Shown: positions 33,784 to 57,219, numbered from the stretch's first letter. The stretch is 64,000 bases of DNA from Candidatus Lustribacter sp. (GCA_965277805.1 OZ255842.1:3552001-3616000), one strand, 5' to 3'. Program-made: numbers and translations. The notes: generated by a model from the sequence alone, not told the origin.

Positions 33784-33832
33784 ACCGCATACTCGCCGTT
33801 ACGCGATGACCGCGCGATGACCGGGATGTTGC
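33784..33832 (-). promoter_or_regulatory. 11-bp-period direct repeats upstream of fliQ
   Basis: Minus strand GCAAC-N6-GTCAT-N6-GTCAT-N22-GTG. Confidence 0.55.
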
Positions 33833-33850
33833 GAAACCTCGACGATTTTC

Positions 33851-33878
33851 GCGGTCCCTCGACAAGCTTGGGATGACA
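33851..33878 (+). repeat. Dispersed REP-like repeat, copy 2
   Basis: GCGGTCCCTCGACAAGCTTGGGATGACA. Confidence 0.85.
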
Positions 33879-33926
33879 AACTGCGCGCAGGAGATCAGGC
33901 CTGTGCCACGTACGGCAAAAATTACC

Positions 33927-35345
33927 ATGCCGGCCAAGACGATGTTCGACAAGATCTGGGAGCGCCACGCCATCCTCGAAGAGGCAGACGAGACCCTCCT
34001 CTACGTCGACCGCTGTCTATTACATGAGGGCTCGAGTCACACGTTCGAAAACTTGCGCGAAACCTCGACGCCGGTAGCGCGTCACAAGCAAGTGTTTGCT
34101 TTCGCCGATCACTACGTGCCGAGCGATCCCGAGCAGCGCAAGCGGGGAACGACCGCAATTGCCGATCCGGAGATTCGTCACATGGTCGAGCTGCTCGAGA
34201 GCAACACGACCGAACACGGCATCACGCAGTTCGGCATCGCTGACGAGCGTCAGGGCATCCATCACGTTGCCGGTCCCGAGCTCGGCATCACGCTGCCCGG
34301 TCTCGTGATCACCGGCGGCGACTCACACACGTCCACGCACGGTGCGTTCGGAAATTTTTCGTTCGGCATCGGCGCTTCGGAAGTCACGCACGTGCTCGCA
34401 ACGCAAACGATTTGGCAGCGCCGGCCCGGCAACAAGCGGATCGTGGTCGACGGCACGCTCGGCTTCGGCGTCGCACCGAAAGACCTGATCCTCGCGATCA
34501 TCGCGCGCATCGGCATCGGCGGCGGTCTCGGCCACGTGCTCGAATACGCCGGCTCGACGTTCCGCAAGATGTCGATGGACGAGCGCATGACCATCTGCAA
34601 CATGTCGATCGAAGCGGGCGCGCGCGCCGGCATGATCGCCCCTGACGACGTCACGTACGCTTATATTGAAGGCCGCCCATATGCGCCGCAGGGCGCAGAC
34701 TTCGAGCGTGCGGTCGCATACTGGAAGACCCTGCCATCGGATGACGACGCCAAATTCGATCAAATCGTCACGCTCGATGCGGCCGCAATCGCGCCGCACG
34801 TCACCTGGGGGACGAATCCCGAACAGGGCCGGCCGATCTCCGAACGCGTCCCCGATCCGGCCGCCGAAGCCGATCCGGAACGCCGCGCCGAAATCGCCAA
34901 GTCGCTGCAGTACATGGACCTCAGGCCCGGCATGCCGCTAACCGAGATCGGCGTCGATCGCGTCTTCATCGGCTCGTGCACGAACAGCCGCATCGAAGAT
35001 CTGCGCTCCGCCGCCGCCGTTGCGCGTCGCGGTCACGCCGTGGTGCCGACGTGGGTTGTGCCCGGCTCGGTTGCGGTGAAACGGCAAGCCGAAGCGGAGG
35101 GCCTCGATCGCGTGTTCATTACGGCGGGCTTCGAATGGCGCGAACCGGGCTGCTCGCTGTGCACGGCGCTCAACGGCGACATGATTCAGCCGGGCGAACG
35201 CTGCGCGTCAACCTCAAACCGCAATTTCCCCGGCCGGCAAGGACCGCTCGGACGCACGCACCTGATGAGCCCGGCGATGGCCGCAGCCGCGGCGATCACG
35301 GGTCACCTCACCGACGTTCGCCAACTCTCCGCCGGCAACAACTAA
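33927..35345 (+). CDS. leuC: Isopropylmalate isomerase large subunit family protein (divergent LeuC paralog)
   Basis: KTMFDKIW..H, GDSHTSTHGAFG, CNMSIEAGARAG, FIGSCTNSRIEDL, PGCSLC, STSNRNF.GRQG. Confidence 0.85.
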   Translation: MPAKTMFDKIWERHAILEEADETLLYVDRCLLHEGSSHTFENLRETSTPVARHKQVFAFADHYVPSDPEQRKRGTTAIADPEIRHMVELLESNTTEHGITQFGIADERQGIHHVAGPELGITLPGLVITGGDSHTSTHGAFGNFSFGIGASEVTHVLATQTIWQRRPGNKRIVVDGTLGFGVAPKDLILAIIARIGIGGGLGHVLEYAGSTFRKMSMDERMTICNMSIEAGARAGMIAPDDVTYAYIEGRPYAPQGADFERAVAYWKTLPSDDDAKFDQIVTLDAAAIAPHVTWGTNPEQGRPISERVPDPAAEADPERRAEIAKSLQYMDLRPGMPLTEIGVDRVFIGSCTNSRIEDLRSAAAVARRGHAVVPTWVVPGSVAVKRQAEAEGLDRVFITAGFEWREPGCSLCTALNGDMIQPGERCASTSNRNFPGRQGPLGRTHLMSPAMAAAAAITGHLTDVRQLSAGNN

Positions 35346-35962
35346 TGGAACCATTCACCCGCGTCACGGCGATCGCCGTGCCGTTCGACGAAGCCAACGT
35401 CGATACGAACCAGCTCTGCCCGACTCGCTTCAACAAGGTTCCGCGCGGCGAACGCTTCTGGAGCGTGATGCTGCACGACCGGCGCTTCAATCCGGATGAG
35501 TCGGAGAAGCCCGAGTTCATCTTCAATCAAGAACCATACCGGAAGGCCGGCATCATCGTGGCCGGCCGCAACTTCGGCGTCGGGTCGTCGCGCGAGACGG
35601 CGGTCTTCGGGCTCGTCTACTTTGGCATCCGGTGCGTCATCGCGCCGAGCCTGGGCGACATCTTCACCAACAACGCATACAAGAACGGGTTGCTCCCGAT
35701 CGTCCTGCCGGCCGAAGCGGTGACCGATCTCATGCAGCAACTGCAAGCCGAACGCGGCGCGGAGATCACCGTCGATCTGCCGAGTCAAGCCGTGATCGCG
35801 CCCAATGGCACGACCTACACGTTCGACATCAAGCCGCTGCGCAAGCGCTGCTTGAGTCTCGGTCTGGATGAGATCGCGCTAACCAAAACGTTCGGCGACA
35901 AGATCGATTCGTTCGAGGCGAACTACAAACGCACGTATGACTGGCTCGACACCGGAGCCTGA
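35345..35962 (+). CDS. leuD: Isopropylmalate isomerase small subunit family protein (LeuD paralog)
   Basis: MEPFT, NVDTNQLCP, NFGVGSSRE, DIF.NN.YKNGLLPI, GLDEIALT. Confidence 0.85.
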   Translation: MEPFTRVTAIAVPFDEANVDTNQLCPTRFNKVPRGERFWSVMLHDRRFNPDESEKPEFIFNQEPYRKAGIIVAGRNFGVGSSRETAVFGLVYFGIRCVIAPSLGDIFTNNAYKNGLLPIVLPAEAVTDLMQQLQAERGAEITVDLPSQAVIAPNGTTYTFDIKPLRKRCLSLGLDEIALTKTFGDKIDSFEANYKRTYDWLDTGA

Positions 35963-36443
35963 TCGCCCCTCGACGCTCGAGCACCTCGGCTTCGTCTTGG
36001 TGCTCGGTGTATTCATGGGCTGGTATCTCTGGAACAGCGCTGCCGCATCGGCGACCTTTGAGAACTTGTTCTTGGTCGGCCCGGTCAGCGTGCTCGGGCT
36101 CGCGCTGGTCGCGATCGTCATCGGGTTGACCATCGCGCAGAAAAACGCGCCGGCCGCAGCCGCGGGAGCGATCCCGGATCGCTTGCCGGTTGGCCGCACG
36201 CGCGATGCGATCGCCGTCATTATCGCGTTTCTCGTTTTCGTCGCTGCAGCACCGGTCATCGGTTTCGATCTCTCGACCTTCTTCTTCATGGCCGCCGTGA
36301 TGTGGTACCTCGGCGAGCGGCGCATCGTGTGGATCGCGGGCATCTCGCTCGCGCTCGCGGTGCTGCTCACCATCGGCGCGCTCGCGACGCTGACCTATCC
36401 CCTGCCGACCGCGATTCTCGGCCGGCTCTGGGCGCTGCTGTGA
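35937..36443 (+). CDS. Tripartite tricarboxylate transporter small membrane subunit (TctB-like)
   Basis: Four to five TM segments, IGF..STFFF..MWYLGER, LP motif; lies upstream of TctA. Confidence 0.7.
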   Translation: MTGSTPEPDRPSTLEHLGFVLVLGVFMGWYLWNSAAASATFENLFLVGPVSVLGLALVAIVIGLTIAQKNAPAAAAGAIPDRLPVGRTRDAIAVIIAFLVFVAAAPVIGFDLSTFFFMAAVMWYLGERRIVWIAGISLALAVLLTIGALATLTYPLPTAILGRLWALL

Positions 36444-37963
36444 TCGATCTCCACGCGCTGCAATCGGCGTTCACGATTCTCTCATCGTCAAACTTGGCGT
36501 GGCTGCTCGTCGTTCCGGGCGTCATCCTCGGCATGCTCGGCGGTGCCTTGCCCGGCGTCTCCGGCGCGCTGATTTTGGCGCTCGTGCTGCCGGTGACGCT
36601 GCGTATGGATTTTCTGCCGGCGCTCGTGTTTCTCACCGCAATCCACACCGGCTCGCTGTTCGGCGTTGCAGTGCCCGCGATTCTCATGAACGTGCCGGGC
36701 TCGGCGGCCGCAGTCGCCACGTCTTTCGACGGCTATCCGATGTCGCGGCGCGGCGAACACAACGTCGCGCTCGGCCTCGCGCTTTCGGCCTCCGTGCTTG
36801 GCCATCTCGGCGCCTACATTCTGCTGTTCTTGTGGATCGAACCGATTTCGCACGCGGTGTTGAAGCTTGGTCCGCCGGAGATGCTGTTGATCATGCTGTG
36901 GGGCCTGACGCTCATCGCGGCCTTACGCGGCAAACACATGTCGCGCAGCCTGCTCGCCGGCGTGCTCGGCATTTTGATCGGCACGATCGGGCTCAGTCCG
37001 GGCGGCGCGATTCGCGGCACGTTCGGCATACCGGATCTGCTCGACGGCGTCCCCGTCATCTCGGCGCTGATCGGGCTTTTCGCAGCCGGCGAACTCTTCA
37101 ATCTGGCGGGCACGAAGTTTCTCGTCGATGCGGCCGAACATCGCCGCGTTCGCATCAACGAGATCATCCGCGGTATGCTCGCGGCGCTGCGGTACCCGGT
37201 CGTCATCCTGCGCGGGCTCGCGATCGGCTCGACCATCGGCGGCCTGCCCGGCGTCGGCGCATCTGTCTGCAATCTCATCTCCTACGTCGAGACGCGCCGC
37301 ACCGACAAACACCCGGAAACGTTCGGCACGGGCAATCCCAAAGGCGTCGTCGCCGCCGAAGCGGGCAACGCGAGCTCCGAAGGCGGCTCGATGGCGACGC
37401 TGCTCGCGCTCGGCATCCCGGGTGGCGCCTCGTCGGCCGTGATGCTGGCCGCCTTTGCGCTGCACAATATCACCGGCGGCCCGCAATTCATCACGAAGTC
37501 CAAAGATGTCGTCTACGCAATCATCATGACGAACTTCGCCAACGGCGTCGTGCTGCTGCTGCTCGGCATCGTGCTGACCGGTCTGATGGCAAACATCGTG
37601 CGCATTCCCGTACGCATCCTCATCCCGGCGATCTTGGCGCTCGCGACGTTCGGTGCGTACAGCTTCGACGGCAGCATGATCGGGCCGTTCACCATGGCGG
37701 TGTTTGCCGTGCTCGGCTGGTTCATGCGCCGTCACGATTATTCGATCCCCGCCTGCGCCGTCGGCTTGATCCTCGGCAAGAACATCGAACAGCAACTGCT
37801 CAACTCGATTCAGGTGAGCGGCGGCGGACTCAGCTACTTCTTAGGCCGGCCGATCGCGCTGACACTTTTCGTGCTTCTCGTCGGTTCGATGGTCTATCGC
37901 CCGGTCATGGACCGGGTACGCACGTTCGGCCGGCGCGCCGAGAAAGATCCCGCTGCATGTTGA
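36440..37963 (+). CDS. tctA: Tripartite tricarboxylate transporter permease TctA
   Basis: GALPGVSG, AILMNVPG..A.ATSFDGYPM, GVVAAEAGNAS, LALGIPG. Confidence 0.9.
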   Translation: MIDLHALQSAFTILSSSNLAWLLVVPGVILGMLGGALPGVSGALILALVLPVTLRMDFLPALVFLTAIHTGSLFGVAVPAILMNVPGSAAAVATSFDGYPMSRRGEHNVALGLALSASVLGHLGAYILLFLWIEPISHAVLKLGPPEMLLIMLWGLTLIAALRGKHMSRSLLAGVLGILIGTIGLSPGGAIRGTFGIPDLLDGVPVISALIGLFAAGELFNLAGTKFLVDAAEHRRVRINEIIRGMLAALRYPVVILRGLAIGSTIGGLPGVGASVCNLISYVETRRTDKHPETFGTGNPKGVVAAEAGNASSEGGSMATLLALGIPGGASSAVMLAAFALHNITGGPQFITKSKDVVYAIIMTNFANGVVLLLLGIVLTGLMANIVRIPVRILIPAILALATFGAYSFDGSMIGPFTMAVFAVLGWFMRRHDYSIPACAVGLILGKNIEQQLLNSIQVSGGGLSYFLGRPIALTLFVLLVGSMVYRPVMDRVRTFGRRAEKDPAAC

Positions 37964-38949
37964 TTCGCTGGTTGTTGCCCGTTCTCGGACTCGTGCTCGC
38001 GCTCACGGCGGGCCGCACGATGGCTGCCGACGACGCGTGGCCAACCAAACCGCTCACGATCGTGGTTGCGACGGCGGCCGGCGGCGGCTTCGACCTCATG
38101 GCGCGCATGACGGCCCCGCTGCTCGGCCAGCAACTCGGCGTTCCGGTGGCGGTCATCAACAAGGAGGGCGGCTCCGAGCTGATCGGCTCCGCGTATCTGC
38201 TAAGCCAGCCGCACGACGGCAACACGATCCTGGTCGTGGGTTCGGTGCCGTATTGGTATGCCGACATCAACGAATTGCACGCACCGTTCAAACTCGCCGA
38301 TTTCGACGTGCTCAACATTCAGTCGGAAGACCGCTCGTCGGTGATGGTTCCGAAAGACAGCCGGTTCAAGTCGCTCAAAGATCTGCTGACCGAAGTGAAG
38401 GCGCATCCGGGGACGCTCAGCGTCGCGGTCGTTCGCGACTCGGGGGAGTTCTATAACTTCGGCATCATGCGCGAGAGCCTCGGTTTGCCGCCCTCGGCGA
38501 TTCGCGTCGTCACGTATGAATCGAGCGCACCGCTGCGCACGGCGCTCGCGGGCGGCCAAGTCGATTTCGCCGTCATCTCGCTCGATGCGAGCGCATCGAT
38601 CATTCAGCTGCTGAAACCGCTGGCGATCTTCGGACCGCCCGATAAAGCATTCCCCGGGCTGCCGTCGGTCGAGAGCGTGATCAAACCGATGGGCGCGAAG
38701 TCGCCCGAATTCGTGCCGAGTTCTTACCGCGCATTCGTCGTGCCGGCCGACTTCAAGACGCTCTATCCCGACCGCTACAAAAAGCTACTGCACGCCTACC
38801 AAACGGTCGTGCAGAGCCCCGAGCTGATCCAGAAAGCTGCCGCAGCAAGTCTGCCGGCGCTTTGGCTCGGCCCCGACAAGTCGAAGCAAGAGATCGACCA
38901 TGCCTTCACGCTGTTTCAAAAACATGGAAACTTGCTAACGGAAAAGTGA
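37957..38949 (+). CDS. Tripartite tricarboxylate transporter binding protein (TctC/Bug)
   Basis: Signal peptide, WPTKPLTIVV..AAGGGFDLMAR, V.N..GG, DGNTIL. Confidence 0.88.
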   Translation: MLIRWLLPVLGLVLALTAGRTMAADDAWPTKPLTIVVATAAGGGFDLMARMTAPLLGQQLGVPVAVINKEGGSELIGSAYLLSQPHDGNTILVVGSVPYWYADINELHAPFKLADFDVLNIQSEDRSSVMVPKDSRFKSLKDLLTEVKAHPGTLSVAVVRDSGEFYNFGIMRESLGLPPSAIRVVTYESSAPLRTALAGGQVDFAVISLDASASIIQLLKPLAIFGPPDKAFPGLPSVESVIKPMGAKSPEFVPSSYRAFVVPADFKTLYPDRYKKLLHAYQTVVQSPELIQKAAAASLPALWLGPDKSKQEIDHAFTLFQKHGNLLTEK

Positions 38950-38980
38950 GTGGCGGTCCCTCGACAAGCTCGGGATGACA
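38950..38980 (+). repeat. Dispersed REP-like repeat, copy 3
   Basis: GTGGCGGTCCCTCGACAAGCTCGGGATGACA directly after the tctC stop. Confidence 0.85.
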
Positions 38981-39157
38981 GTGGGCATGGTTGGCTACCG
39001 TACATAATACCGTGCAGTAGGTCGAACGACCCATTGCCGAGCGTATTCTCGACTTAGTAGCATTACAGAGCCGTAGTTAGGCCGTCTGAACGAGGGAGCG
39101 ATACGTGTTTGCTCCGGCTCGCAAATATGCCCCGATTGCCGTTTTGAGCTGGGGACC

Positions 39158-46484: not shown

Positions 46485-47144
46485 TCACCGGAACGAGGCG
46501 ACGACGCCGTTGCAGACGAGTGCCCAGCCGTCGACGAGTACGAATAGGAGCAGTTTGCAGGGGAGTGAGATGATGGGCGGGCTTAGCATGAACATCCCCA
46601 GGCCCATCAGCACGGCGGCGACGGCAAGGTCGATGGCGACGAACGGGAGATAAAGCGCGACGCCGATCGCGAACGCGCTACGCAGTTCACCGACGACGAA
46701 CGCGGGGATCAGAACCGTAAGCGGCGTGCGTTCGGGCGCTTCGTCGGACGGGCGGTGCGCGACGTGCGCGAAAACGTCGATGTCGCGCCGTTTCGTCTGC
46801 CGCAGCATGAACGCGCGCAGCGGTTCGACGGCACGATTGAGAAACTGCCGCTGCGACATCGTACCGGCGGCGTACGGGCGCAATGCGTCGTGCTCGATGC
46901 GCTCGATCGTCGGCGTCATGATGACGAACGTCAACACGAGCGCGAGGCCGGTCAACACGGGATTCGGCGGCAGCGATGCCGCGCCGATCGCGGAGCGCAC
47001 CAGCGAGAGCACGACGACGATGCGAACGAACGACGTCGAAAGCACCAGCACGAACGGTGCGATCGAGAGGAGCGTCAGCCCGGCCAGAATATCGAGCGGC
47101 AGCGCCGCGTGATTGCGGCCCGCGATCGAAAGCAACTCGTCCAT
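46485..47144 (-). CDS. fliP: Export gate protein FliP (no N-terminal signal extension)
   Basis: LTLLSIAP..TSFVRIVVVLS, PPNPVL, PLRAFMLRQT, LIPAFVVGEL, LYLPF..IDL, KLLLFVLVDGW. Confidence 0.95.
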   Translation of the reverse strand: MDELLSIAGRNHAALPLDILAGLTLLSIAPFVLVLSTSFVRIVVVLSLVRSAIGAASLPPNPVLTGLALVLTFVIMTPTIERIEHDALRPYAAGTMSQRQFLNRAVEPLRAFMLRQTKRRDIDVFAHVAHRPSDEAPERTPLTVLIPAFVVGELRSAFAIGVALYLPFVAIDLAVAAVLMGLGMFMLSPPIISLPCKLLLFVLVDGWALVCNGVVASFR

Positions 47145-47182
47145 GCGTCCACCGTAGACGGTGCGCATGGCCGCGATGTTAC
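47145..47182 (-). promoter_or_regulatory. Direct-repeat motif plus -10 box, probable leaderless promoter of fliP
   Basis: Minus strand GTAAC-N6-GCCAT-N10-TACGGT-N6-ATG. Confidence 0.55.
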
Positions 47183-47186
47183 CGCG

Positions 47187-47444
47187 TTACGGTTTTTCGA
47201 TGAGCTCCGTGACGCGGACGCCGAAGTTTTCATCGATGGCGACGACTTCGCCGCGCGCGACGAGGCGATCGTTGACGAGCAAGTCCACCGGACCACCGGC
47301 GAGACGATCGAGTTCGACCACCGAACCCGTCCCGAGCTTCAGGATGTCGCGCACCAACATTTTGGCCGTGCCAAGTTCAGCCGTTACCGTGAGCGGCACG
47401 TTCATCAACAGATCGAGATTATTGCCGTCCGGCGCGATCACCAC
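47187..47444 (-). CDS. fliN: C-ring protein FliN
   Basis: NLDLLMNVPLTVTAELG..ILKLGTGSVVELDRLAGGPVDLLVN..ARGEVVAIDENFGVRVTE. Confidence 0.95.
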   Translation of the reverse strand: MVIAPDGNNLDLLMNVPLTVTAELGTAKMLVRDILKLGTGSVVELDRLAGGPVDLLVNDRLVARGEVVAIDENFGVRVTELIEKP

Positions 47445-48235
47445 GGATCTCCCCTCGGGGTAATGGACCGTACTTCGAATGCGGGCCGGCCATGTTGCAG
47501 GCCGCAGGTCCCGAAGCCAATCCTCTGGCCGCCGACGTTCAATTCGCCCTCGCCGTCGACCTTGGTACTCAGCAGGACAACGGTGCCGACTCGGAGCTCG
47601 AGCAGGCGTGGAACGGCCAGTTCCCCGCGTCCCAGGAGCACCCGGACATCCACCGCGGCGCCGCCGAGCGTGGCGGGGGTCACGGTTGCCGACGGCGGCG
47701 CCTCAGGCAGGTCGCGCACGATCCCGACACCCAGCGTCAGCGCCACCGGCGCCGTGACCCGAACGTCGAAATAGGCCACCGACCGTGGGACCTGTGCCGC
47801 TTCGACCGCGCGCGTCGGCCCACGCCGCTCCACGCACAGCGCCTCGCAGGCGTTCGCGCAGCGGGCTACGATGCGTTCGATCGCCCCGGCCTCGAGCGCA
47901 CTCCAGGAACCTTGATCCGCGGATGAATCTTCGCCGAACGCCGCCGCCACCAGCCGGCGCGCGTCGCGGGCCGCGAGTACGAACACGACATCGGTCGCGC
48001 GGCCGGGGGTCGCGAAGAGCAGCGCGTCCTGCGTGAGGCTGCGCCAGGCCGCCGCATCGAGGGCAACCGGCTCGCCGATCGTCACGCTGCACGCCTCGCC
48101 CAAGAGTGTCCGCAAGCCCTCGCGCACGCCGTTGGCAAGAACGCAGGCCGCATCGACCGGGAGGCTTGGACGGGGCACGAAACGGGTGTGCCGCACGCGT
48201 CCGCGGCGCGGCCCGAACGCAAGCGTCGCGATCAC
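47438..48235 (-). CDS. fliM: Divergent FliM-like C-ring protein
   Basis: C-terminal SpoA domain (VRVLLGR..LLELRVGTVV.L..LNVGG..GTCG), SALE.GAIERI CheC-like helix; located before fliN; lacks the N-terminal LSQxEIDALL CheY-binding peptide. Confidence 0.65.
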   Translation of the reverse strand: MIATLAFGPRRGRVRHTRFVPRPSLPVDAACVLANGVREGLRTLLGEACSVTIGEPVALDAAAWRSLTQDALLFATPGRATDVVFVLAARDARRLVAAAFGEDSSADQGSWSALEAGAIERIVARCANACEALCVERRGPTRAVEAAQVPRSVAYFDVRVTAPVALTLGVGIVRDLPEAPPSATVTPATLGGAAVDVRVLLGRGELAVPRLLELRVGTVVLLSTKVDGEGELNVGGQRIGFGTCGLQHGRPAFEVRSITPRGDPW

Positions 48236-48954
48236 TTGAGCAAATCCATCACGACTTTGGAGCCCGCGCCCTGCGCTTTGTTCGCGGCCTGCAGCGCGGA
48301 GAACGCAACGTAGGCTTCGGTGAGCCGTTGCAAGCCGGTATCGATGTCGACGTTGCCGATGTCGCGAGCGTGCGTCGCGAGCGCGGGGAATGCGCCGTCG
48401 GCCGGCGCACCGACGTGCGGCACGATGCCGGCCACCGCACCGAAGTGCGTCGCATCGAGCCGCTGCGGATTGCTCCCGGCCGGAAATCGCGCCAGCGCAA
48501 TGCGCCCGACGACCGCGCGTTCGGCTGACCGTTCGCGCGTGCGCGGATCGATCGACGTGCGTGTGTACGCCAGCACGCCGTCGTCTTCGAGGTGCACGTC
48601 GGTGCCACGGCCGAGCGTGCGATCCGGCTCGGGCAAGCGCAACGGCGCGAGCGCGCCGCCGCCGGGCGGCGTGCCGAGCACGCGCGCGCCGTCGGCCGTT
48701 TGCAGCGTGCCGTCGCTGCCGATATGGAAGCTGCCGGCGCGCGTGAACGTGCGCGCACCGCGCTCGTCCGCCGCGACGAACCACGCGCCGGGCGGTGCCG
48801 CGACGCTGAGCGGATCGTCCGACGGTAACGGCGGCAGATTGCCGCCCACGTCGCCGAATTGCGGCATCGCGCCCGGTGTATAGGCGGCGAGCACGTCGTT
48901 CGCGCGATCGGCGATACGTTTGAGCGCATCGAGCGAGGCGGCCGGCAGCATCAT
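48232..48954 (-). CDS. Divergent FlgE/F/G-family rod/hook protein
   Basis: WFV..FTRAGSFHIGSDGTLQTADGARVLG, VGRIALARF, NVDI..L.RL.EA (GNVDI replaces SNVD). Confidence 0.75.
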   Translation of the reverse strand: MMLPAASLDALKRIADRANDVLAAYTPGAMPQFGDVGGNLPPLPSDDPLSVAAPPGAWFVAADERGARTFTRAGSFHIGSDGTLQTADGARVLGTPPGGGALAPLRLPEPDRTLGRGTDVHLEDDGVLAYTRTSIDPRTRERSAERAVVGRIALARFPAGSNPQRLDATHFGAVAGIVPHVGAPADGAFPALATHARDIGNVDIDTGLQRLTEAYVAFSALQAANKAQGAGSKVVMDLLK

Positions 48955-49475
48955 GGCGCGCCGACCCGCACGCCGCTGCCGGCCAATGCGAAGCGCGCGC
49001 TCGCGAGCGCACGTTCCACGACATCACGCAGCGGATTGCTGCAGAGCGCAACGATGCGCAGCGCCGTGCCGTCGTGATGAACGAGCAGACGCACGCGCCC
49101 GCCCGCGACGTCGAGGGTGTGCGTGGCCGGCACCGGACGGCGCGCGCTGAGCCGTTCCACCGCCCGCTCGATGCGCCGTGTCGTCTCGCTCGGCGGGCGC
49201 CGCCGTTCGGGTACCGCCGACGCGCGTGCGTCTGCAGCGTGCCGCACGCGCGTGGGCGGCGGCGCGATGACGCGTTCGCGGTGAGGCGGAACCGCAGCAA
49301 CGCGCGCGAGCACCGCCGGACGCGCATCCTCTGCGCTGCGCTGCGCGGCCGGCATTCGCGCCGGCCCCGCATCGTGCGCCAAATGCAGCGCGGAATACCA
49401 GGCTTCGCTGAGCGCGCGCCGGTCGGTCTGCGCGATCTGGGTGGCGATCACCGCCACGCCGTCGGATGCATTCAT
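48951..49475 (-). CDS. Hypothetical protein, possibly FliK-like (hook-length control C-terminal domain)
   Basis: Pro/Ala/Arg-rich linker, then GRVRLLV..LRIVALC..LRDVVERAL..LA..GVRV; occupies the fliK position; RBS GGAGG. Confidence 0.45.
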   Translation of the reverse strand: MNASDGVAVIATQIAQTDRRALSEAWYSALHLAHDAGPARMPAAQRSAEDARPAVLARVAAVPPHRERVIAPPPTRVRHAADARASAVPERRRPPSETTRRIERAVERLSARRPVPATHTLDVAGGRVRLLVHHDGTALRIVALCSNPLRDVVERALASARFALAGSGVRVGAP

Positions 49476-49534
49476 CTCGTTTTCCCTCCGGCGTCAGCGT
49501 AGCGTGCCGGAATCATCGCAAAACTGCGGCGTTG

Positions 49535-49963
49535 TTACCGGCTTGCGATCAGCTGGTCGATCGCAAGCGTGGCGTCGGCAACGCGGCGGTACAGTCCACG
49601 CGCCACGTTGACGCCGAGCGCCGGTAACGCCGTCAGCGCCGCGAGCAGCACGTCGCCGTCTGCCACCGCCACGTGCGTCTCCTCGCGGCAGACCGCCGAC
49701 CACGGATGGCGCGGCAACGGCTCGAGTAAGGCGCCTTCACCCGTGAACTCCCCTGGACCGAGCACCGCCACCGTGGTGCGCTCGCGTCCCGTGCGCTGCA
49801 CGATCGCAACGCTGCCGTTGAGGATCAGGAACACCTCGTGCGCCGCGCCGCCGCGTTCGTAGAGCGTCGCGCCCGCTGGAAACGTCGCGAGGCGAAAGGC
49901 CGGCAACACGCGCATCAACGACGCCGCATCCACGCCGCTGAAGAACGCGTTGTCGGTGAGCAT
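49535..49963 (-). CDS. Stand-alone cyclic nucleotide-binding domain protein
   Basis: FFSGV, FPAGATLYERG..VFLILNGSV, LGPGEFTGE.ALL; no HTH. Confidence 0.8.
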   Translation of the reverse strand: MLTDNAFFSGVDAASLMRVLPAFRLATFPAGATLYERGGAAHEVFLILNGSVAIVQRTGRERTTVAVLGPGEFTGEGALLEPLPRHPWSAVCREETHVAVADGDVLLAALTALPALGVNVARGLYRRVADATLAIDQLIASR

Positions 49964-50484
49964 CAGTGCTCGGCGAGCAATTTCTGCACGATCCGGTTGA
50001 CCGCATCGTCTTGCGAATCGCCGACCACCGTCGCTCGCAGCTTTCCGCTGCGATCGAAAAACAGCTGCGTCGGCCAGGCGTCCACGCCGTAGGCGTTCCA
50101 GATCGCATACGAGTTGTCGATCGCAACGGGCCAGGTGATGCCCTGCTTCTTCAGGTTCTCGATCACGTTCGCACGGTTCTTCTCGAACGGCGTCTCGGGA
50201 CTGTGAATCCCGACGATCAGCAGATCGCCGGCTTTCTTCGCATTGAGCGCACGCAGATTCGGCACGACGTTCTGGCAGTTGTAGCAGTCGAACGTGAACA
50301 CGTCGACGACCACGACCTTGCCCGCGGTTTCGGCCGGCGTCAGTTGACCGTTGAGCCAGCCTTGCGAGGCGGCGTACACCGGTGCGAGCGTCGCGGCGCG
50401 CACCGGCGCGGCAGCGGCCGAATGCGTTGCCGATCCGGCGACGAGCGTGGCAACGATGCCGGCGAGCAGTGTGGTGCGGAACAT
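49963..50484 (-). CDS. Secreted thioredoxin/redoxin (DipZ C-terminal-like)
   Basis: WLN..LT, GKVVVVDVFTFDCYNC, IVGIHSPE, AWPT. Confidence 0.88.
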   Translation of the reverse strand: MFRTTLLAGIVATLVAGSATHSAAAAPVRAATLAPVYAASQGWLNGQLTPAETAGKVVVVDVFTFDCYNCQNVVPNLRALNAKKAGDLLIVGIHSPETPFEKNRANVIENLKKQGITWPVAIDNSYAIWNAYGVDAWPTQLFFDRSGKLRATVVGDSQDDAVNRIVQKLLAEH

Positions 50485-50487
50485 CGG

Positions 50488-51168
50488 TCAATCCTTCCGG
50501 TGCAGAACGGTGATATAACCGCCCTCTTGTTTGATTTGGCCCGCGCGCACGAGCTGGTTCATCTCGAGGCTCACCGTTTCGCGCGTGCTGCCGATGATCG
50601 AGGCGATGTCTTGATGCGTCAGCCGCAGGTCGAGTAGCGTGCCGTCACCGGTGGTTCGGCCGTGCTCGGCCGCAAGACGCTCGAAGAGATTCACCAGCCG
50701 GTCGCTGATCTTCGCATAGGCGAGATCTTCGATCGTCGCCGACGCATCGCTCAAACGGTCGTTGAGCATCTGCGCGACGTTGAGCGCGAGTGCCGAGTTG
50801 CCGGCGAGCAGCGCGAACAGATCGTCCGCGTGCGCTTTGCAAATCAGCGTTTCTTCCATGCACGTCGCGACCGTCGTGCGTTCACCGCCGCCGAAGAGCG
50901 CGTCTTCACCGAACATGTCGCCCGGGCCGAGAATCGCAACCGTGACTTCCTTGCCGTCGGCGGTGTTGCGCGCGATGCGTACGCGACCGGTCTTGATGAG
51001 AAACACGACCTTCTTCGCATCGCCCTGATCGAAGAACGTGGAGCGCTTGGGCAGCAGCTCCATCGTGAAGATGCCCTCGCTGCCCGCGATCGCCTCGACC
51101 GGCACGTTCGCGAAAAGCCGGTTCTTCTTCAGATACCAGATCTTGTTTTCGGTGTCTTCGGCTTCCAT
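50488..51168 (-). CDS. Crp/Fnr family transcriptional regulator
   Basis: KIWYLKKNRLF, LGPGDMFGE, LTHQDIASIIGSTRETVS. Confidence 0.93.
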   Translation of the reverse strand: MEAEDTENKIWYLKKNRLFANVPVEAIAGSEGIFTMELLPKRSTFFDQGDAKKVVFLIKTGRVRIARNTADGKEVTVAILGPGDMFGEDALFGGGERTTVATCMEETLICKAHADDLFALLAGNSALALNVAQMLNDRLSDASATIEDLAYAKISDRLVNLFERLAAEHGRTTGDGTLLDLRLTHQDIASIIGSTRETVSLEMNQLVRAGQIKQEGGYITVLHRKD

Positions 51169-51474
51169 CTAGAGCACCGCCCCGACGACGTGCGGCCGCC
51201 TCAGCGCGCCGGCATGGCTGTCCGCGCGCACGTACGAGAGTTGGATCGCGGCAGTGCCGGAGCGCACGGGCAGCGTCACGTGAAACGGCGAGCACACGTG
51301 CGGCGTGCAGAACGAGGCGATCCAGCCACGCGGCACGTCCACGGCGCGCAACCGCACGACCGATCCCGCCGGGGCGCCGACGCGCACGGCAAACGAGGTC
51401 ACGCCCGGATCGGCCGAGGGGTGGCACGTTCCGGCCGCGAGGGCGCACGAGAGAATCGCCAGTGCCAGACTCAT
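51169..51474 (-). CDS. Small secreted Cys-containing hypothetical protein
   Basis: Signal-like N-terminus; VPRGWIASFCTPHVCSPF. Confidence 0.6.
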   Translation of the reverse strand: MSLALAILSCALAAGTCHPSADPGVTSFAVRVGAPAGSVVRLRAVDVPRGWIASFCTPHVCSPFHVTLPVRSGTAAIQLSYVRADSHAGALRRPHVVGAVL

Positions 51475-51518: not shown

Positions 51519-53099
51519 TTACATCCCCGGCCGTTCGAGATACAGCGCGTGGCCGGCGAAGTCGAAGGTGACCGTGAACTTGCGCAGGAGGGCGAGGCCC
51601 ACGTTGCCTGCGTCGATGCGGTCGGCGAAGGCGCCGCTCTTGGCTTGGATCACGTCGGCGTCTTGGTTCGAGACGGTCGTCGAGCCGAGCCGCAGCGAGC
51701 TTATCCGCGTGGCATAGCTCTTGTCGCTGCCGCCCACGCCGATGAAGCTGCCCGTCCCGGTGCCCACCGCCGGCGCCAGCGCCGGGTGCGCGTCGGCGAA
51801 GGGACCGTAGATCAAGAGCGGGCTGCTGTCGCCCGTGTCGATGATGAAGGGCGCGTCGATGTCGTTGATGCGCAACACCGCCTCGGGAATGTCGCGGTCG
51901 GTATCGATTGCGATGCGGTCGCCGGCCGGTGTAATCGAACCGGGCGGGCCGAAGCGCATCACGTGGTGCGCGAAGTCGAGCTGCACGATGCTCGCGGCGA
52001 AGAACGGATAGCCCAAAATGCCGTCGATGCGCATGTGGCCGGCCGACGAACCCAACTCGATCGTCGAGATGACCAAGTTGTCGAGATATGCGTTGCCGAT
52101 CGTCAAGCGCGGCAATCGCGCGACGTGCAGGCCGCCCGCGCGCACCGCGCCGCGCACTTCCATCGAGCCTTCTTGCCCGATACCGGCCGCTTGCGCGACC
52201 TGCGAATCGAGCAGCACGTCGGCGGATCCGCTGTCGATGAGAAATGCGTACGGTTTGCCGCCGATCTGCACGACGCACGCGATGCGCGTGCCGTCATCGA
52301 GCAGCGGTACCGTTTGCGCGCCCGCAGCGATCAACCGCCGCGGCACAAGTGGCGCAAACAGGGCGCCGTCGATCGCGCCGCCGACTTTCACCGACGTCGT
52401 TTGCACGATCGTATCGAAGTCGTGTTCGCCGTCGGTCGTGACGGCGTGAAACGCCATCGCCATGCCGCTGACGTCGTGCCAGTCCGACAGGTCCACGTAC
52501 GTCGGCCCGTCGCCGTCGAGATATTCCGTGCGCAGCGGCAAGCCGCTCTCGGTATCGATCCAGATCGTTTCGGGTTCGCCGCCCTCGGCGTTGACCTCGA
52601 TGTTCCACGTGCGCCGGTCGCCGACCATGCCGAAGGCCAGAAAGCGCGCGCGTTCGGGCGCGGTGAGAAATTTTCCCGAATCGATGAAGTTCGCGGTCAG
52701 CGCGCGCCGGCGCAGCACGCCGGTGAGTTCTTGCACGTTGCCGTCGCTCGACGCCCAGATGCGATCGCCGATGCGCAGCGTCGTTTCCATCCGTGGACCG
52801 AGGCTCTCATCGTCGCGTTCGCGGTCCCCGTCGCGCCAGCTGTGAAAGACGCCGCTGAGTCCTTCGCCCGTAATCGTGCCGGTGGTTTCCATCGTCGCAA
52901 CGTCGCGGCCGTGCGTGGCTTTCTGATACGCCGCGAGAATGCCGGTGATCGGCGGCGGATCGCCGATATCGCGTGCTTCGGCAACGGGCATGCACGCAAG
53001 CGCAATCAGCGCCGCGGCAAAGAGAACGCCCTTACGGTTGCGAGCGGTACTGGTCGAGCGAACCGAGGACGTTTTTGACGTAGTTTTGCGTCTCGGCAT
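51519..53099 (-). CDS. Secreted aspartyl protease with two retropepsin-like domains (start uncertain)
   Basis: FLIDSGS..DGILG and FIIDTGD..GNVG; hydrophobic signal [12 protein letters not shown]; 5' end overlaps the slt gene. Confidence 0.8.
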
Positions 53100-53610
53100 A
53101 CGGGGGCACATCACCGTATTTTTCAACGGCATTCGGACCGGCATTGTAGGCGGCGACCGCAAGGCGCGTGTCGCCTTTGAAACGATCGAGCAGGCCGCGC
53201 AGATAGCGCGTTCCGCCCGCAACGTTCTGGGCGGGATCGTAGGGGTTCTTCACACCGAGCGACGCGGCCGTCTCGGGCATGAGCTGCATCAGCCCCTGCG
53301 CGCCGACCGGCGACGTTGCGTTGGCGTTGAACGACGACTCGTTCGCGATGACGGATTTGATCAGCGCGGGATCGACTTGCCAGATGTCGGCGTTCTGCTG
53401 CACGAGCGAGTTGATCTGCTCGGGCGGAACGGGTGCGGGCGCGTCGGGATTCTCCGTGCTCGCCGGGGCGAGTTCGGGCATCAGCGCCTGTGCGAGGACC
53501 GCGTTGAAATCGCTGCCGGGCGGCGTCGTGACGACGGCGCCGGCCGGGGGTGCTCCGCTAATCTGGGCAATCCGGTTCTGGATCGCCGAGATGTCACTGA
53601 GGATATCCAT
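53032..53610 (-). CDS. Lytic transglycosylase (SLT domain)
   Basis: [41 protein letters not shown]. Confidence 0.95.
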
Positions 53611-54640
53611 CGTCCAAGCTATCGGCGATTGCGGTCATCTGCATGAGGGTTTCGGCCGGATCCGCTCCCCCCTCCGCTTGCTTGAGAAAGCCCGCGATGC
53701 GGGCCTCGGCGGCGATCGCGCGGGCCAGGACGGGATCGCCGGCACCCGGATCGAGGCCGAGTGAGCGGGCATCGCGAGCGCTATCGAGCGCAGCCAGAGC
53801 TGCCCGCAGGCGCGCCGCAGCGCGACGATGCTCGGGCGTTGCGACTTCGCCCAGGGTGCGGCTCGCGCTGGCCGGGAGATCGATCGCCGGAAACCAGCCC
53901 GCGGCCGCGAGACGCGCGCTGAGGACGATGTGGCCGTCCAGCGCGGCCCGCGCGGCCTCGGCGACCGGATCGTGCTCCAGCGGGCCCTCGGAGAGCACGG
54001 TGGCCACCAGCGTGATGCTGCCGGCCGCCGTCGCCCCGGCGCACTCGAGGAGCCGTGCCTGTGTAGCCGTGACCGATGGTGGAAAACCCGCGCGCCCGAC
54101 CGGCTCGCCCCGCGCGATGGCGAGGTCGCGCGCGGCCGCTGCGACCCGCGCTAGGCTGTCGACGACCAGCAGCACGTGCAGTCCGCGCGAACGCAACGCG
54201 TCGGCCTGGGCAAACGCCATTTCCGCCACGCCCAGCCGTTCCGCCGCGGGACGGTCGCTCGTGGCGCACAGGACGGTCGTGCGCGGCGGGATCCGGCGCA
54301 GCCAGCGCTCGGCCTCGCGGCCCCGCTCGCCGGCCAGCGCCACCACCGTGGCGTCGGCGCAGCTGCCGGCGACGATCGCTTCGAGCAGCGTCGACTTGCC
54401 GGCCCCGGGGCTGCCGAAGATCCCGATCCGCGCGCCGCGCCCGAACGCGAGCGGGCCGTCGAGGGCGCGGATCCCGGTGTGGAACGGCGTCGTCACGGCG
54501 ACGCGCCGGCGCAGTTCCGGAACGCGCGGTGCGGCCGCCCGGCGCCGTCCGATCGGAGCCGGACCGCCGTCCAGCACGCAGCCGCCGGCACCGACGGCGC
54601 GGCCGAGCAGCGCCGTTCCGAGCACGACGCGCGCACTCAT
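53594..54640 (-). CDS. fliI: FliI/SctN export ATPase, N-terminally shortened (348 aa)
   Basis: [53 protein letters not shown]. Confidence 0.9.
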
Positions 54641-54921
54641 GACACGCGCTCGAGCAACGCCGCGAGTACCGCGTCGATCTCGCGGCCCAATGCTGCACGC
54701 GCGGCCTTCCCGAGCGCGGGATCGCACGATGCATCGAACGCGTCGGCGAGCCGCGCGCGAAACACGCGCACGTCGCGCGCGAAATCCGCACCATCTGCAC
54801 GCGCCGGCGGTTGCGGTTCGGCCGGCGCATCATCTGCCGGCGGCTCCTCCGCGACGGTCGCTTCGGGTGCGGCGCGCAACAACTGCGCGAACGAGACGAA
54901 CGCATCGTCAGCCGCGGGCAC
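54637..54921 (-). CDS. Small protein at the fliH position (miniature FliH-like)
   Basis: ~94-aa ORF overlapping both fliF/G and fliI; acidic/Pro linker, then helices (ARDVRVFRARLADAFD..AARAALGRE); GTG start uncertain. Confidence 0.45.
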   Translation of the reverse strand: MPAADDAFVSFAQLLRAAPEATVAEEPPADDAPAEPQPPARADGADFARDVRVFRARLADAFDASCDPALGKAARAALGREIDAVLAALLERVS

Positions 54922-56377
54922 GCAACAACTCCTCAGGATGCGGCACGAGGTCGCTCGCGGCGCGCGCCAGTCGCCGCACGATTTGCGCGCGCTCCTCAGG
55001 CGGATAGAGTTCGAGCACGGCGGCGGCCGTCGCGGCCGGCAGCGCGGAGATGACGGCGGCGGCAACGTGCGGCGGTTCGCCGGCGAGCGCGCCGCGCACG
55101 CGCGCCGGTGGAAGTCCCGCTGATTCGCGCGATGACTTGCGCACGCCGGCCGCTTCCACCGCGCGCACCAGCAAGGCATAGACCGGGCGCGCGCTGCGCA
55201 ACGTCAACACGACGGCACCCGCGACGAGGGCGAGTTGCGGCAGCATGCCGGTGAACAATCCCGCAATGCCCCACGCATCAATCCCGCGTACCGCGGCCGG
55301 CGCCGTCGAGGCGAAGCGCACGGCCTCGACGCGCAACGTATCCCCGCGATGCGCGTCGATGCCGGCCGCGGCCGCCGCGAGCGCGCGAATCGCATCGAGA
55401 TCGATGCCGCGCGCGCCGTCGACGAAGATCGCGACCGATAGGCGCGCGGTCGCATCGGGCGCAGCGGAATGATGCACGTCGCGCGTTTCGCTGCCGCGCT
55501 CTTCGGTGGTCGTGGTTTTCTGGTACTTCTTCTGCGGGCTCGCGTAGCGTTCGTCGCCGTTCGTGCGGGTGAGATCGCCGGCCAGCGGGAGACGTTTGAC
55601 GTCGTGCTCGTCGCGCGCTTCGCCCAGCGGTTCGCGATGCACGCGGACGATCGTCGCGCCCGCGCCGAGCGCCGCATCGAGCGCCGACTGCAGCGAGGCT
55701 TGCAGCGACGTGTCGTCGGGTTCGCTCGTGCCGCCGTCGAGCGCACCGCGATCGTCGAGCACGGTCACGCGCGCGGCATCCAAACCCGGCACACCGCCGG
55801 CGACGAACGCGCGAATACCCGCCACCGCCGCCGGCGAAAGATGCGCGCCCGGCGCGAGCGTGATGCGGACGCTGGCCGATGCGTCGCGCGTCGTTTCGTC
55901 GGCATAGGCGCCGGAACTCGCCGGCGCCACGATCACGCGCGCATCGGCGACGCCGTCCAATCCTCGCAGGCCTTGCGCGAGATCGGCAGCCAGCGCATCG
56001 CGCGTCTGCGCTTCGAGAATGCTCTGCGGCGTGAGCGCGTTGACGTGCGCGAACGTTTCGTCCGACGTGGCGAGATGCCGGTGCGGAACGCCGGCCAGCG
56101 AAAGCCGCAACAGCAACTCCGCGCGTTTGCGCGGATCGACGCGCACGTTGTCGGCCAACGGCGCGTAAGGAACGCCCCAGCCGGCGAGGCGCGTCTGCAC
56201 TTCGGTCAACTGATCCGCGTAGAGCGGCGTGGCGAACAGCGGGATGCGCACGTCGCGCGTCGCGGTGACGCCCCAGCCGAGCGCGACGATCGCCGCGACG
56301 AAACCCGCGAACAGCGCGGCCTTGAGACGCAGCGGCAACGCGCCCAGACGCGCAAGCTCGCGCCGGAACACCTCCAT
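54908..56377 (-). CDS. fliF: MS-ring protein FliF fused to a FliG middle-domain segment
   Basis: TM1, ASASV..L.PG..LS..V.GI..FVAGGVPGLDAARVTVLD, RLSVAIFVDG, GID..RGD.L.V, TM2, then EPPHVAAAVISALP..AAAVL..YPPEERAQIVRRLA. Confidence 0.85.
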   Translation of the reverse strand: MEVFRRELARLGALPLRLKAALFAGFVAAIVALGWGVTATRDVRIPLFATPLYADQLTEVQTRLAGWGVPYAPLADNVRVDPRKRAELLLRLSLAGVPHRHLATSDETFAHVNALTPQSILEAQTRDALAADLAQGLRGLDGVADARVIVAPASSGAYADETTRDASASVRITLAPGAHLSPAAVAGIRAFVAGGVPGLDAARVTVLDDRGALDGGTSEPDDTSLQASLQSALDAALGAGATIVRVHREPLGEARDEHDVKRLPLAGDLTRTNGDERYASPQKKYQKTTTTEERGSETRDVHHSAAPDATARLSVAIFVDGARGIDLDAIRALAAAAAGIDAHRGDTLRVEAVRFASTAPAAVRGIDAWGIAGLFTGMLPQLALVAGAVVLTLRSARPVYALLVRAVEAAGVRKSSRESAGLPPARVRGALAGEPPHVAAAVISALPAATAAAVLELYPPEERAQIVRRLARAASDLVPHPEELLRARG

Positions 56378-56380
56378 CGG

Positions 56381-56656
56381 CTAGATCTGCAGGCCCAGCA
56401 GCGTTTGCAGTCCCTGCGTGACGCGTTGCGCGCTTGCGGCAGCGAGCTGCAGCGCGATGTCGGCCCGCGCGCGCTCGACGACCATCTCTTGCAGTCCGCC
56501 GCGATGCGCCGCAAACGCGCGCTCGGCATTATCGGCTCCGGCGAGCGCGCCGCTCGCGGCATCGACCAAATCGCCGAACGCGCTTCCAGCTTGCGGCAGC
56601 GGGGTGACCGACGGCGCGTCGGGCGCAACGTCGGGAACGAGCGGTGCGACCTGCAT
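56381..56656 (-). CDS. fliE: Hook-basal body protein FliE
   Basis: FGDLV..A, LQEMVVERARADIALQL..RVTQGLQTLLGLQI, matching the FliE C-terminus. Confidence 0.8.
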   Translation of the reverse strand: MQVAPLVPDVAPDAPSVTPLPQAGSAFGDLVDAASGALAGADNAERAFAAHRGGLQEMVVERARADIALQLAAASAQRVTQGLQTLLGLQI

Positions 56657-56988
56657 CAGCGTTCGATGTCCAACGTGCGTTCCGCCAGCCGTTTCCCGAT
56701 GTCGAAGATCGATGCGTCGGCTTCATACGCGCGCTGCGCATCGAGCGTCGCGATCAGCTCCGTCAACGCATCGCCCGTGCCGGGTTCCGACGACACCGTG
56801 AAGGCTTCGGTCGTGTCGTCCTCGGCGCCGTCACCCGGAGTTTCCACGAGATGCGCAACCAAACGCTGATACGGATGTCCGGGCGTCGCGGCTTGCGCAG
56901 CCGCTACGTTGCGCGCGTCGAGGTCGAGCATCGTCCGCTGCGCGCTCATCCCGCGCGCCGCAACGTCGAGCAACGCAAAATCCGTCAC
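56656..56988 (-). CDS. flgC: Rod protein FlgC (short, divergent)
   Basis: DVAARGMSAQR..LD..ARNVA, PYQR, ELIATLDAQRAYEA..TLDI. Confidence 0.8.
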   Translation of the reverse strand: MTDFALLDVAARGMSAQRTMLDLDARNVAAAQAATPGHPYQRLVAHLVETPGDGAEDDTTEAFTVSSEPGTGDALTELIATLDAQRAYEADASIFDIGKRLAERTLDIER

Positions 56989-57170
56989 TTCGCCACCAGC
57001 TTGAGCTCGTTCACGCGCGCCTTCACCGCGCCGAGCAGCGCTTCGGTAAACAGCGCCTGCCGCGCCACCGCGCCCATCGACCGCTCATTCGCAGCCCGGC
57101 TCGCCGCAGTAAGTGCATCCCGCGCCCCGGCAGCCGCCGCCGCAGTGGCGTCCCCAATATCAAGACTCAT
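56985..57170 (-). CDS. Miniature FlgB-like protein (61 aa)
   Basis: First gene of the operon, before flgC; C-terminal SMGAVARQALFTEALLGAVKARVNELKLVAK resembles the FlgB C-terminal helix. Confidence 0.5.
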   Translation of the reverse strand: MSLDIGDATAAAAAGARDALTAASRAANERSMGAVARQALFTEALLGAVKARVNELKLVAK

Positions 57171-57219
57171 GCCGCAACTCTAGCCCCGCACCATGAACGA
57201 ATTGTTGCGCAACCATGAG
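57171..57219 (-). promoter_or_regulatory. Direct-repeat motif plus -10 box, probable leaderless promoter of the flgB operon
   Basis: Minus strand CTCAT-N6-GCAAC-N6-TTCAT-N10-TAGAGT-N6-ATG. Confidence 0.55.

Follow-up and report, generated by a model that had tools for sequence, protein, structure and literature searches.

A direct-repeat promoter motif shared by flagellum-type export and rod genes of Candidatus Lustribacter sp. and its relatives

Results

The window analysed in this study is a stretch of 64,000 nucleotides (nt) from Candidatus Lustribacter sp. (GCA_965277805.1, OZ255842.1:3552001-3616000). Its minus strand carries four copies of a direct-repeat promoter motif, and the genes behind them form a flagellum-type export and rod set, as assigned by Pfam and NCBIfam scans. 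Window coordinates are counted from the first letter of the stretch; G000 followed by a number denotes a coordinate in the source genome itself (5.53 Mb, one contig). The four sites lie before an open reading frame (ORF) of 61 amino acids (aa) termed flgB*, before a 174-aa ORF termed fliK*, and before fliP and fliQ (Table 1). They had been pointed out in a sequence-only reading of the window, and all four strings quoted there match the minus strand letter for letter. The same reading placed the last pentamer 22 nt from the start codon in three genes, which is true for flgB*, fliP and fliQ. It also chose the right start for fliP, ATG 47144: orthologues align from MDELL and not from the ATG of a longer ORF at 47168, and in the two closest relatives the orthologue alignment has no start codon upstream of the MDELL start. 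From the last pentamer to the -10 box the distance is ten nucleotides (N10) at flgB*, fliP and fliK*, and N11 to GAGTAT at fliQ.

Table 1. Promoter sites, genome-wide scan ranks and gene groups. Positions are those of the window unless marked G000; the last column gives rank and score with the second matrix (see text).
Feature	Position	Strand	Sequence or content	Rank; score
flgB* promoter	57168..57219	minus	CTCAT-N6-GCAAC-N6-TTCAT-N10-TAGAGT-N6-ATG, before 61-aa ORF, first gene of operon 1	4; 23.9
flgB* elements	57219-57215, 57208-57204, 57197-57193, 57182-57177, 57170-57168	minus	CTCAT, GCAAC, TTCAT, TAGAGT, ATG	
fliK* promoter	49473..49538	minus	GTAAC-N6-GCAGT-N6-ATGAT-N10-TACGCT, 20-nt stretch with GGAGGG, ATG; before 174-aa ORF	5; 21.7
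fliK* elements	49538-49534, 49527-49523, 49516-49512, 49501-49496, 49475-49473	minus	GTAAC, GCAGT, ATGAT, TACGCT, ATG	
fliP promoter	47142..47182	minus	GTAAC-N6-GCCAT-N10-TACGGT-N6-ATG; internal, within 42-nt fliN-fliP spacer	2; 26.4
fliP elements	47182-47178, 47171-47167, 47156-47151, 47144-47142	minus	GTAAC, GCCAT, TACGGT, ATG	
fliQ promoter	33781..33832	minus	GCAAC-N6-GTCAT-N6-GTCAT, 22 nt, GTG; drives fliQ-fliR/flhB-flhA	
fliQ elements	33832-33828, 33821-33817, 33810-33806, 33794-33789, 33783-33781	minus	GCAAC, GTCAT, GTCAT, weak -10 box GAGTAT, GTG	
flgF-like gene site	G000 3763817		flgG-like gene next	1; 28.6
HExxH gene	G000 446413-446952	minus	179-aa HExxH protein	3; 25.5
Site before S-layer-homology (SLH)-domain protein	G000 92165			6; 20.1 (following score 17.9)
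Operon 1	51519..57170	minus	61-aa ORF, FlgC-like (110 aa), FliE-like (91 aa), FliF-FliG middle domain fusion (489 aa), unassigned stretch, FliI ATPase, SLT transglycosylase, 567-aa aspartyl-protease-like-domain protein	
Inserted module	49535..51474	minus	101-aa ORF, Crp-family regulator (50488-51168), redoxin, cyclic-nucleotide (cNMP)-binding protein	
Operon 2	47187..49475	minus	174-aa ORF, 240-aa FlgE/F/G D1-domain protein, FliM/N-like, FliN (frame plot, Pfam, synteny)	
fliP gene	46485..47144	minus	219 aa from ATG 47144; Pfam FliP 1.8e-72	
Splitting segment	33873..46469	plus	12.7 kb of unrelated genes: aconitase, Tct transporter, glycosyltransferase, others (Pfam)	
Operon 3	29770..33783	minus	fliQ, fliR-flhB fusion, flhA (Pfam, synteny)	

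Orthologous loci from up to 60 related genomes and 80 further fliP loci were compared. The conserved layout consists of two or three direct repeats cGG-Y-M-A-Y at a period of 11 base pairs (bp), followed by N10, TAnnnT, N6 or N7 and the start codon. The core of the repeat reads GTAAC or GCAAC and, in the genus of the source genome, also NYCAT. This layout is kept before fliQ, before the 61-aa ORF, and before fliP where that gene is uncoupled from fliN, at protein identities down to about 45%; the expectation that the motif recurs upstream of orthologous genes is thereby borne out across genera, families and a whole class of Candidatus Eremiobacterota. Among six relatives of the same genus, the letters of the fliP motif are conserved and those of the spacers are variable. 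Of 24 orthologous loci of the 61-aa ORF, 20 carry the layout upstream. The fliN-fliP junctions of 102 relatives have the motif in 2 of 33 cases if the gap is shorter than 15 nt, in 36 of 42 if it measures 15-60 nt and in 20 of 27 if it is longer. Whole clusters from eight other genera show a site before the first gene (8/8), the 174-aa ORF (8/8), fliQ (8/8) and fliP (3/8). A matrix search of these clusters gave 31 matches scoring at least 12, compared with about 1.1 expected at the background rate of the source genome. The four operon starts account for 27 of them; of the remaining four, three fall outside these places and one mirrors a palindromic fliP site. In a more distant family of the class, a divergent cluster and a flgF-sigma locus with the motif (scores of 21-22) are likewise present.

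The conservation, alignment and junction counts include loci of unpublished genomes (L009 of G036, L014 of G035, L016 of G028, and L030, L042, L215 and L254 of G015), as do the counts of flgF and HExxH upstream windows given below (L230 of G048), and the comparison of regulators rests partly on the unpublished G026. No conclusion depends on unpublished genomes alone, apart from the two regulators that lack orthologues in G026.

At the fliP sites of five to six genera (L015, L022, L023, L025, L014, L028), the proximal repeat and the -10 box together form a perfect 8-bp inverted repeat, GGTAACGC-N4-GCGTTACC, with a T run after it in some genera. It might also act as a hairpin or as a partial terminator that separates fliN from fliP.

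A further alignment was blind to the repeats, being anchored only on TAnnnT-N6/7 and the in-frame start codon of the orthologous gene. It comprises 104 sites, 97 of them distinct, which were found at loci of fliQ (15/22), fliP (41/108), the 61-aa ORF (14/14), flgF (22/30) and the HExxH gene (12/29). The 97 distinct sites display three blocks at an exact period of 11 bp, at -17 to -11, -26 to -22 and -37 to -33 from the T of TAnnnT. All three share the consensus cGG-Y-M-A-Y, and the proximal block is the strongest, with A(-12) at 94%, G(-16) at 79%, G(-15) at 78% and C(-17) at 71%; the outer blocks reach 76% for G(-26), 79% for A(-23) and 78% for A(-34). The -10 box is separated from the start codon by N6 in 72 and by N7 in 32 of the 104 sites, and ATG serves as the start codon 95 times, GTG 9 times. 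A TTGACA-like hexamer (at least 4 of 6 letters, spacer of 16-18 bp) precedes only one of the 104 sites, compared with 15 of 170 random TAnnnT, and the frequencies at the aligned sites show no TG before the -10 box. A consensus scan of the minus strand between 45000 and 58500 likewise revealed no promoter of the sigma-70 type.

Both strands of the source genome, about 11 million positions, were scanned with a matrix made from 93 sites of other genomes without preselection for repeats (the second matrix, Table 1). A first matrix delivered a similar picture, with fliP at rank 1 (27.0), flgB* at rank 2 (25.1) and fliK* at rank 6 (20.3). The fliQ site scores low with the first (13.8) and the second matrix (11.6) because of its atypical -10 box in the source genome, whereas fliQ orthologues of other genera are preceded by the canonical form. 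Both matrices were drawn from genomes that are related to each other. The genome-wide scan suggested earlier proved fruitful, as the flgF/flgG pair and the HExxH gene were found outside the window. The flgF-like and flgG-like genes encode rod proteins, confirmed by Pfam. Close to them, a site scoring 15.3-17.1 precedes a 64-aa ORF followed by a gene for a 219-aa FliA/WhiG-like sigma factor. This sigma operon has the motif upstream in 12 of 22 loci of the family, and most genera have the sigma gene and the small ORF side by side with flgF and flgG. The regulon of the source genome comprises seven promoters, the four in the window and three elsewhere, at flgF-flgG (3.7638 Mb), the small ORF and sigma gene (3.7610 Mb) and the HExxH gene (0.4469 Mb). 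Membership in relatives was tested gene by gene, and genome-wide only in the source genome. With a matrix trained on the fliQ, fliP and flgB* sites, 46 of 56 upstream windows of flgF and HExxH genes in other genomes score at least 12, in contrast to only 4 of 1620 control windows. Within 60 kb around the conventional flagellar set of the source genome there is no match of at least 10.

In the genome G019 (96% complete), FliP is broken by four stop codons, and searches there for FliQ, the FlgC-like gene, the sigma factor, flgF and the HExxH gene yielded nothing. This common loss fits one functional unit.

The HExxH gene carries the motif and a leaderless-type start and is kept in 39 of 41 genomes of the class. 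Pfam gave no significant match for its product. By Atlas features (0.93) it may belong with small ATLF/M90/Mx1-like metallopeptidases, which we take as a lead only, and the protein is a candidate cargo or accessory factor.

At rank 6 of the scan, the AT-rich site at G000 92165 lies 59 nt before the gene of the 637-aa SLH-domain protein, which is on the minus strand; we leave it as a possible member of the regulon. Two further genes lie downstream of the sigma gene, at G000 3758935-3759837: a 97-aa ORF and one for a 196-aa DUF922-like protein that contains HEIGH. Neither was detected outside the genus. The strict pattern GYAAY-N6-GYAAY-N10-TANNNT was abandoned as a definition of the regulon: it had two matches in five complete relatives, both of them cluster promoters of G016, and is too narrow.

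The specificity of the motif was also assessed within the source genome. GYAAC-N6-NYCAT-N10-TANNNT has two matches in the window compared with 0.01 expected from shuffles, and a second tailored pattern has two compared with 0.00; both patterns were chosen post hoc. Among 881 genomic candidates with TAnnnT-N6/7-start before an ORF of at least 60 codons, no pentamer slot is filled in 817 and one slot in 61. Two slots are filled in two candidates and three in one, and flgB* and fliP are among these three. Pentamer pairs alone are not enriched genome-wide at N6 spacing; the specificity lies only in the composite with the -10 box.

Discussion

The repeats and their spacing are conserved, are specific in combination with the -10 box, and mark the members of a regulon. 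It is a real, compact, class-wide regulon whose promoter is of a known kind, while the motif and the regulon itself are new. In our view the motif is probably a shared activator-dependent promoter, and the regulon probably serves to build a filament-less, flagellum-derived type III export and rod apparatus. Assuming +1 at the start codon, the 7-bp cores lie at about -29 to -23, -40 to -34 and -51 to -45, on one face of the helix. As the sequence-only reading had recognised, this geometry matches OmpR/PhoB-type promoters without a -35 box, in the 11-bp period as well as in the last unit ending 10 bp before the -10 box. Since the layout is that of the OmpR/PhoB family, the repeats can be read as tandem activator sites and TAnnnT as the -10 box. 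For PhoB, two 11-bp repeats with a 7-bp core each are described as the bound sequence (PMC2648988). Streptomyces PhoP binds between two and six units of 11 nt in the vicinity of the -35 position; trios occur frequently, and core units are extended cooperatively (PMC2275107).

From the layout we infer a protein that binds the repeats and activates rather than represses, and a transcript start at the start codon. An activator would bind the 11-bp units head to tail on one helix face, in place of a -35 box, and would recruit RNA polymerase through region 4 of sigma, as PhoB and PhoP do. Transcription would then start 6-7 nt past the -10 box, at the first letter (A or G) of the start codon. The leaderless geometry, with TAnnnT 6-7 nt before the start and no Shine-Dalgarno box, is found at flgB*, fliP, the flgF-like gene and the HExxH gene, from which leaderless mRNAs would be expected.

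The sequence-only reading had gone one step further and proposed that one response regulator drives leaderless transcripts of the split cluster. The shared promoter type of a regulon stands. The response regulator could not be linked to it, and fliK* has to be taken out of the leaderless set. A winged-helix protein of the OmpR/PhoB type is the most likely activator, and we put it forward tentatively; the response-regulator reading is plausible but unproven. By tblastn in two genomes without a FliP orthologue, the regulators at G000 1183472 and 2575179 have no orthologues in G019 and G026, and those at G000 1723721 and 5469370 have none in G019 only (in G026, FliP was the system gene checked). 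These four OmpR-type candidates fit the loss pattern, which is too weak to name one of them. One of the four, the orphan regulator at G000 5469370, has orthologues of 61-100% identity in most genomes of two families. In the third family its best matches have 36-44% identity and lie about 4 kb from a second FliA-like sigma gene; a functional tie was dropped, because ftsY, recA and recX stand between them in the one annotated locus of that family. An 835-aa Trans_reg_C protein that is convergent with the HExxH gene was also set aside, as in G005, of the same genus, the surroundings of the HExxH gene lack a Trans_reg_C match.

Several findings weigh against an activator of this type, or against the strength of the case. 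Trans_reg_C has 16 matches in the source genome, none of them inside the window. In five complete relatives (G005, G011, G013, G016 and G022), the flanks of the cluster, of the sigma locus and of the HExxH gene are also free of such matches. The motif is absent upstream of 15 Trans_reg_C genes, with a best matrix score of 5.7. In the source genome, fliK* has a GGAGGG Shine-Dalgarno box and a leader of about 14 nt, so that it is leadered and not leaderless, and fliQ combines its poor -10 box GAGTAT with a GTG start. Genome-wide, the excess of TAnnnT-N6-start is modest (335 versus about 260 for in-frame neighbours). The sites of other genomes used for the first matrix had been preselected by the pentamer pattern. 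Moreover, the related genomes are not independent samples, and the counts therefore overstate their statistical weight. Finally, with a sigma factor in the regulon and a sigma-28-like geometry, the signal could partly reflect the specificity of that factor.

Among known systems, the pho box of PhoB and the units of Streptomyces coelicolor PhoP share with the motif the tandem 11-bp repeats, the 6-7-bp core and the occurrence of at least two units, including trios. The PhoB and PhoP units lie, as here, at or near the -35 position in promoters without a good -35 box (PMC2648988, PMC2275107). Between the end of a pho box and the -10 box there are 10 bp, as in the motif described here. However, the core found here is cGG-Y-A-A-C and not CTGTCAT or GTTCA, the regulon concerns flagellum-type export instead of phosphate genes, the -10 box sits right before the start codon, and there is no linked cognate regulator.

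In Alphaproteobacteria, early flagellar genes are controlled by the OmpR-family regulator CtrA (TTAA-N7-TTAAC) and likewise by FtcR and Rem. Bound to half-sites 11 bp apart at the -35 region, such a regulator switches on genes for the basal body and export, for example fliQ, fliF and flgB. The motif resembles these boxes in its 11-bp period and in its TAAC core, which is similar to the half-site TTAAC. In contrast, the phylum is a different one, there are up to three units here, and the CtrA box TTAA-N7-TTAA occurs at none of the four sites in the window. In antibiotic clusters of actinomycetes, promoters controlled by Streptomyces antibiotic regulatory proteins (SARP) have heptamer direct repeats with an 11-bp period near the -10 box, and SARP contain an OmpR-like DNA-binding domain. 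The replacement of the -35 box by repeats of this period and a small, pathway-specific regulon are common to both. However, SARP genes lie inside their clusters, whereas no Trans_reg_C gene is present in or beside the cluster described here.

Leaderless genes of Actinobacteria and Deinococcus have the -10 box 6-7 nt before the start codon. TAnnnT-N6/7-ATG, the lack of room for a Shine-Dalgarno box and the predominance of ATG agree with this arrangement. In contrast to these bacteria, leaderless geometry is a minority feature in the source genome, and some genes of the system are preceded by Shine-Dalgarno-like boxes, as seen with GGAGGG at the 174-aa ORF and GAGGGGAG at fliN.

A serious rival, or partner, of an activator is the FliA/WhiG-like sigma factor of the system (219 aa, G000 3760201-3760860), which could contribute to promoter recognition. 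We regard it as unlikely that the motif is mainly the recognition sequence of this factor. In that case CCGnTAnnnT would function as an extended -10 element, with the middle repeat as its -35 partner; a helper at the proximal repeat would be optional, and the sigma factor would drive its own operon plus every structural operon. For this explanation speak the conservation of the sigma gene with the system (present in 23 of the 24 family genomes and in the other two families searched), its place next to flgF-flgG in most genera and the motif before its own operon. The nearest NCBIfam model is FliA/WhiG with 108 bits, under the cut-off of 189.6, so that the specificity of the factor may differ from the canonical one. 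The consensus of sigma-28 (FliA) is TAAA-N15-GCCGATAA. TAAC-N16-(G)CCGnTA is one base off this sequence; CCGnTA weakly resembles the -10 element and the middle repeat the -35 element, and positions -4, -3 and -2 favour C, C and G (55-59%). However, the most conserved block is the proximal one, which would fall in the spacer, and sigma factors do not read the spacer base-wise. Two or three equivalent units one helical turn apart fit tandem protomers and not a single -35 element. The canonical consensus (at most one mismatch, spacer of 14-16) has 18 sites in the genome and none at the seven promoters, in line with the earlier statement that no sigma-28 consensus is present. In classical hierarchies, moreover, fliA is a middle-class gene under a master regulator.

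The remaining explanations leave the activator out or replace it. Repeats that span -23 to -51 from the presumed start lie where a bound protein could occlude polymerase, and they might be operators of a repressor acting on otherwise constitutive promoters; Streptomyces PhoP both activates and represses via the same repeat units (PMC2275107). A self-sufficient promoter would however need a -35 box or an extended -10 box, and neither was detected in the alignment, apart from the single TTGACA-like hexamer. Activation through contact with polymerase typically goes with a fixed distance to the -10 box, such as the N10 seen here, and repression appears improbable to us. Even less probable is that transcription comes from upstream and that TAnnnT-N6-ATG and the repeats act in an RNA leader, in translation or attenuation, for example through the GGTAACGC-N4-GCGTTACC hairpin. 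The position of fliP inside an operon and the inverted repeat before it would suit such a function. However, the inverted repeat is limited to a few fliP sites, and the other sites, including true operon starts beside divergent or unrelated genes, are unpaired. The direct repeats are conserved as sequence and not as pairs, and the invariance of T, A and T in TAnnnT marks a -10 box and not a ribosome-binding site.

The Crp-family regulator and the cNMP-binding protein encoded within the cluster of the source genome could at first sight suggest that Crp controls these promoters. This is the least credible of the explanations considered. The module with the Crp, cNMP-binding, redoxin and 101-aa ORF genes, which is placed between the gene of the aspartyl-protease-like protein and the 174-aa ORF, is absent from the motif-bearing clusters of eight other genomes, one of them of the same genus, and a role of Crp as the conserved regulator is therefore rejected. 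The repeats here are direct, whereas dimers of the Crp family bind inverted ones. The first gene of the module has TAGCAT-N6-ATG without the repeats upstream, which looks like a separate promoter of the leaderless type. A reading as a promoter of the extracytoplasmic function (ECF) type, with GTAAC as -35 and CGT as -10 element, was discarded, since the spacing is inconsistent between orthologous sites.

Near-consensus promoters of the sigma-28 type (TAAA-N15/16-GCCGATAA), each with a Shine-Dalgarno box and ATG, are present at G000 354552, 1840251 and 933904. They are presumably targets of a second FliA-like sigma factor that belongs to the conventional flagellar set (G000 923102). In the complete relative G022, the sigma gene (C1:669373-670015) is in two pieces with an in-frame TGA, and the cluster keeps good motif sites; the split gene may be a pseudogene or a sequencing error.

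Candidatus Eremiobacterota (Vulcanimicrobiota, WPS-2) is an abundant phylum of soil and peat with a single cultured species. For this species, flagella and a flagellin gene are reported to be lacking, and a search by term of its gene table gave fliN as the sole flagellar gene (Table S8, PMC9758169). The literature that we searched contains no description of the system presented here or of its regulation. Our analysis shows that flagellar-type export genes are kept across the class as one tightly co-regulated set, which is separate from the conventional flagellar genes also present in the source genome. The set reaches beyond the cluster to distal rod genes, a private sigma factor and a small metallopeptidase-like protein. 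With seven promoters, a 33-bp operator and one candidate cargo, the motif offers a handle on the purpose and control of the cluster, and the matrix can be used for annotating the regulon in hundreds of metagenome-assembled genomes.

A bolder idea, which we consider doubtful, is that the motif marks a self-contained, class-wide developmental programme for an undescribed, filament-less machine descended from the flagellum, under a master activator that might not be of the OmpR type, with the HExxH peptidase as cargo or maturation factor. If this were true, the master activator would switch on the export gate, the rod, the private FliA-like sigma factor and the small ATLF/M90-like HExxH metallopeptidase, and the cluster would be an independent device for secretion or for spanning the envelope and not a decaying flagellum.

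The layout of the cluster itself varies among the relatives. The gene order of operon 1 is kept in eight other genera. The distance between fliP and fliQ is about 0.8 kb in the closest relative, G003, compared with the 12.7-kb split in the source genome, and other genera have a metF-like gene (299-311 aa) between the two, judged by eye from its translation to be methylenetetrahydrofolate reductase-like. The conventional flagellar gene set of the source genome lies near 0.92-0.96 Mb. Two fusions occur in the cluster, FliF with a C-terminal FliG middle domain (54908-56377) and FliR with FlhB (31785-33710). The 567-aa protein (51519-53222) contains a retropepsin-like aspartyl-protease domain and has a weak LolA-like match. 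It is a member of the cluster in 8/8 other genera, and such a protease domain is an odd component for a flagellar-type system.

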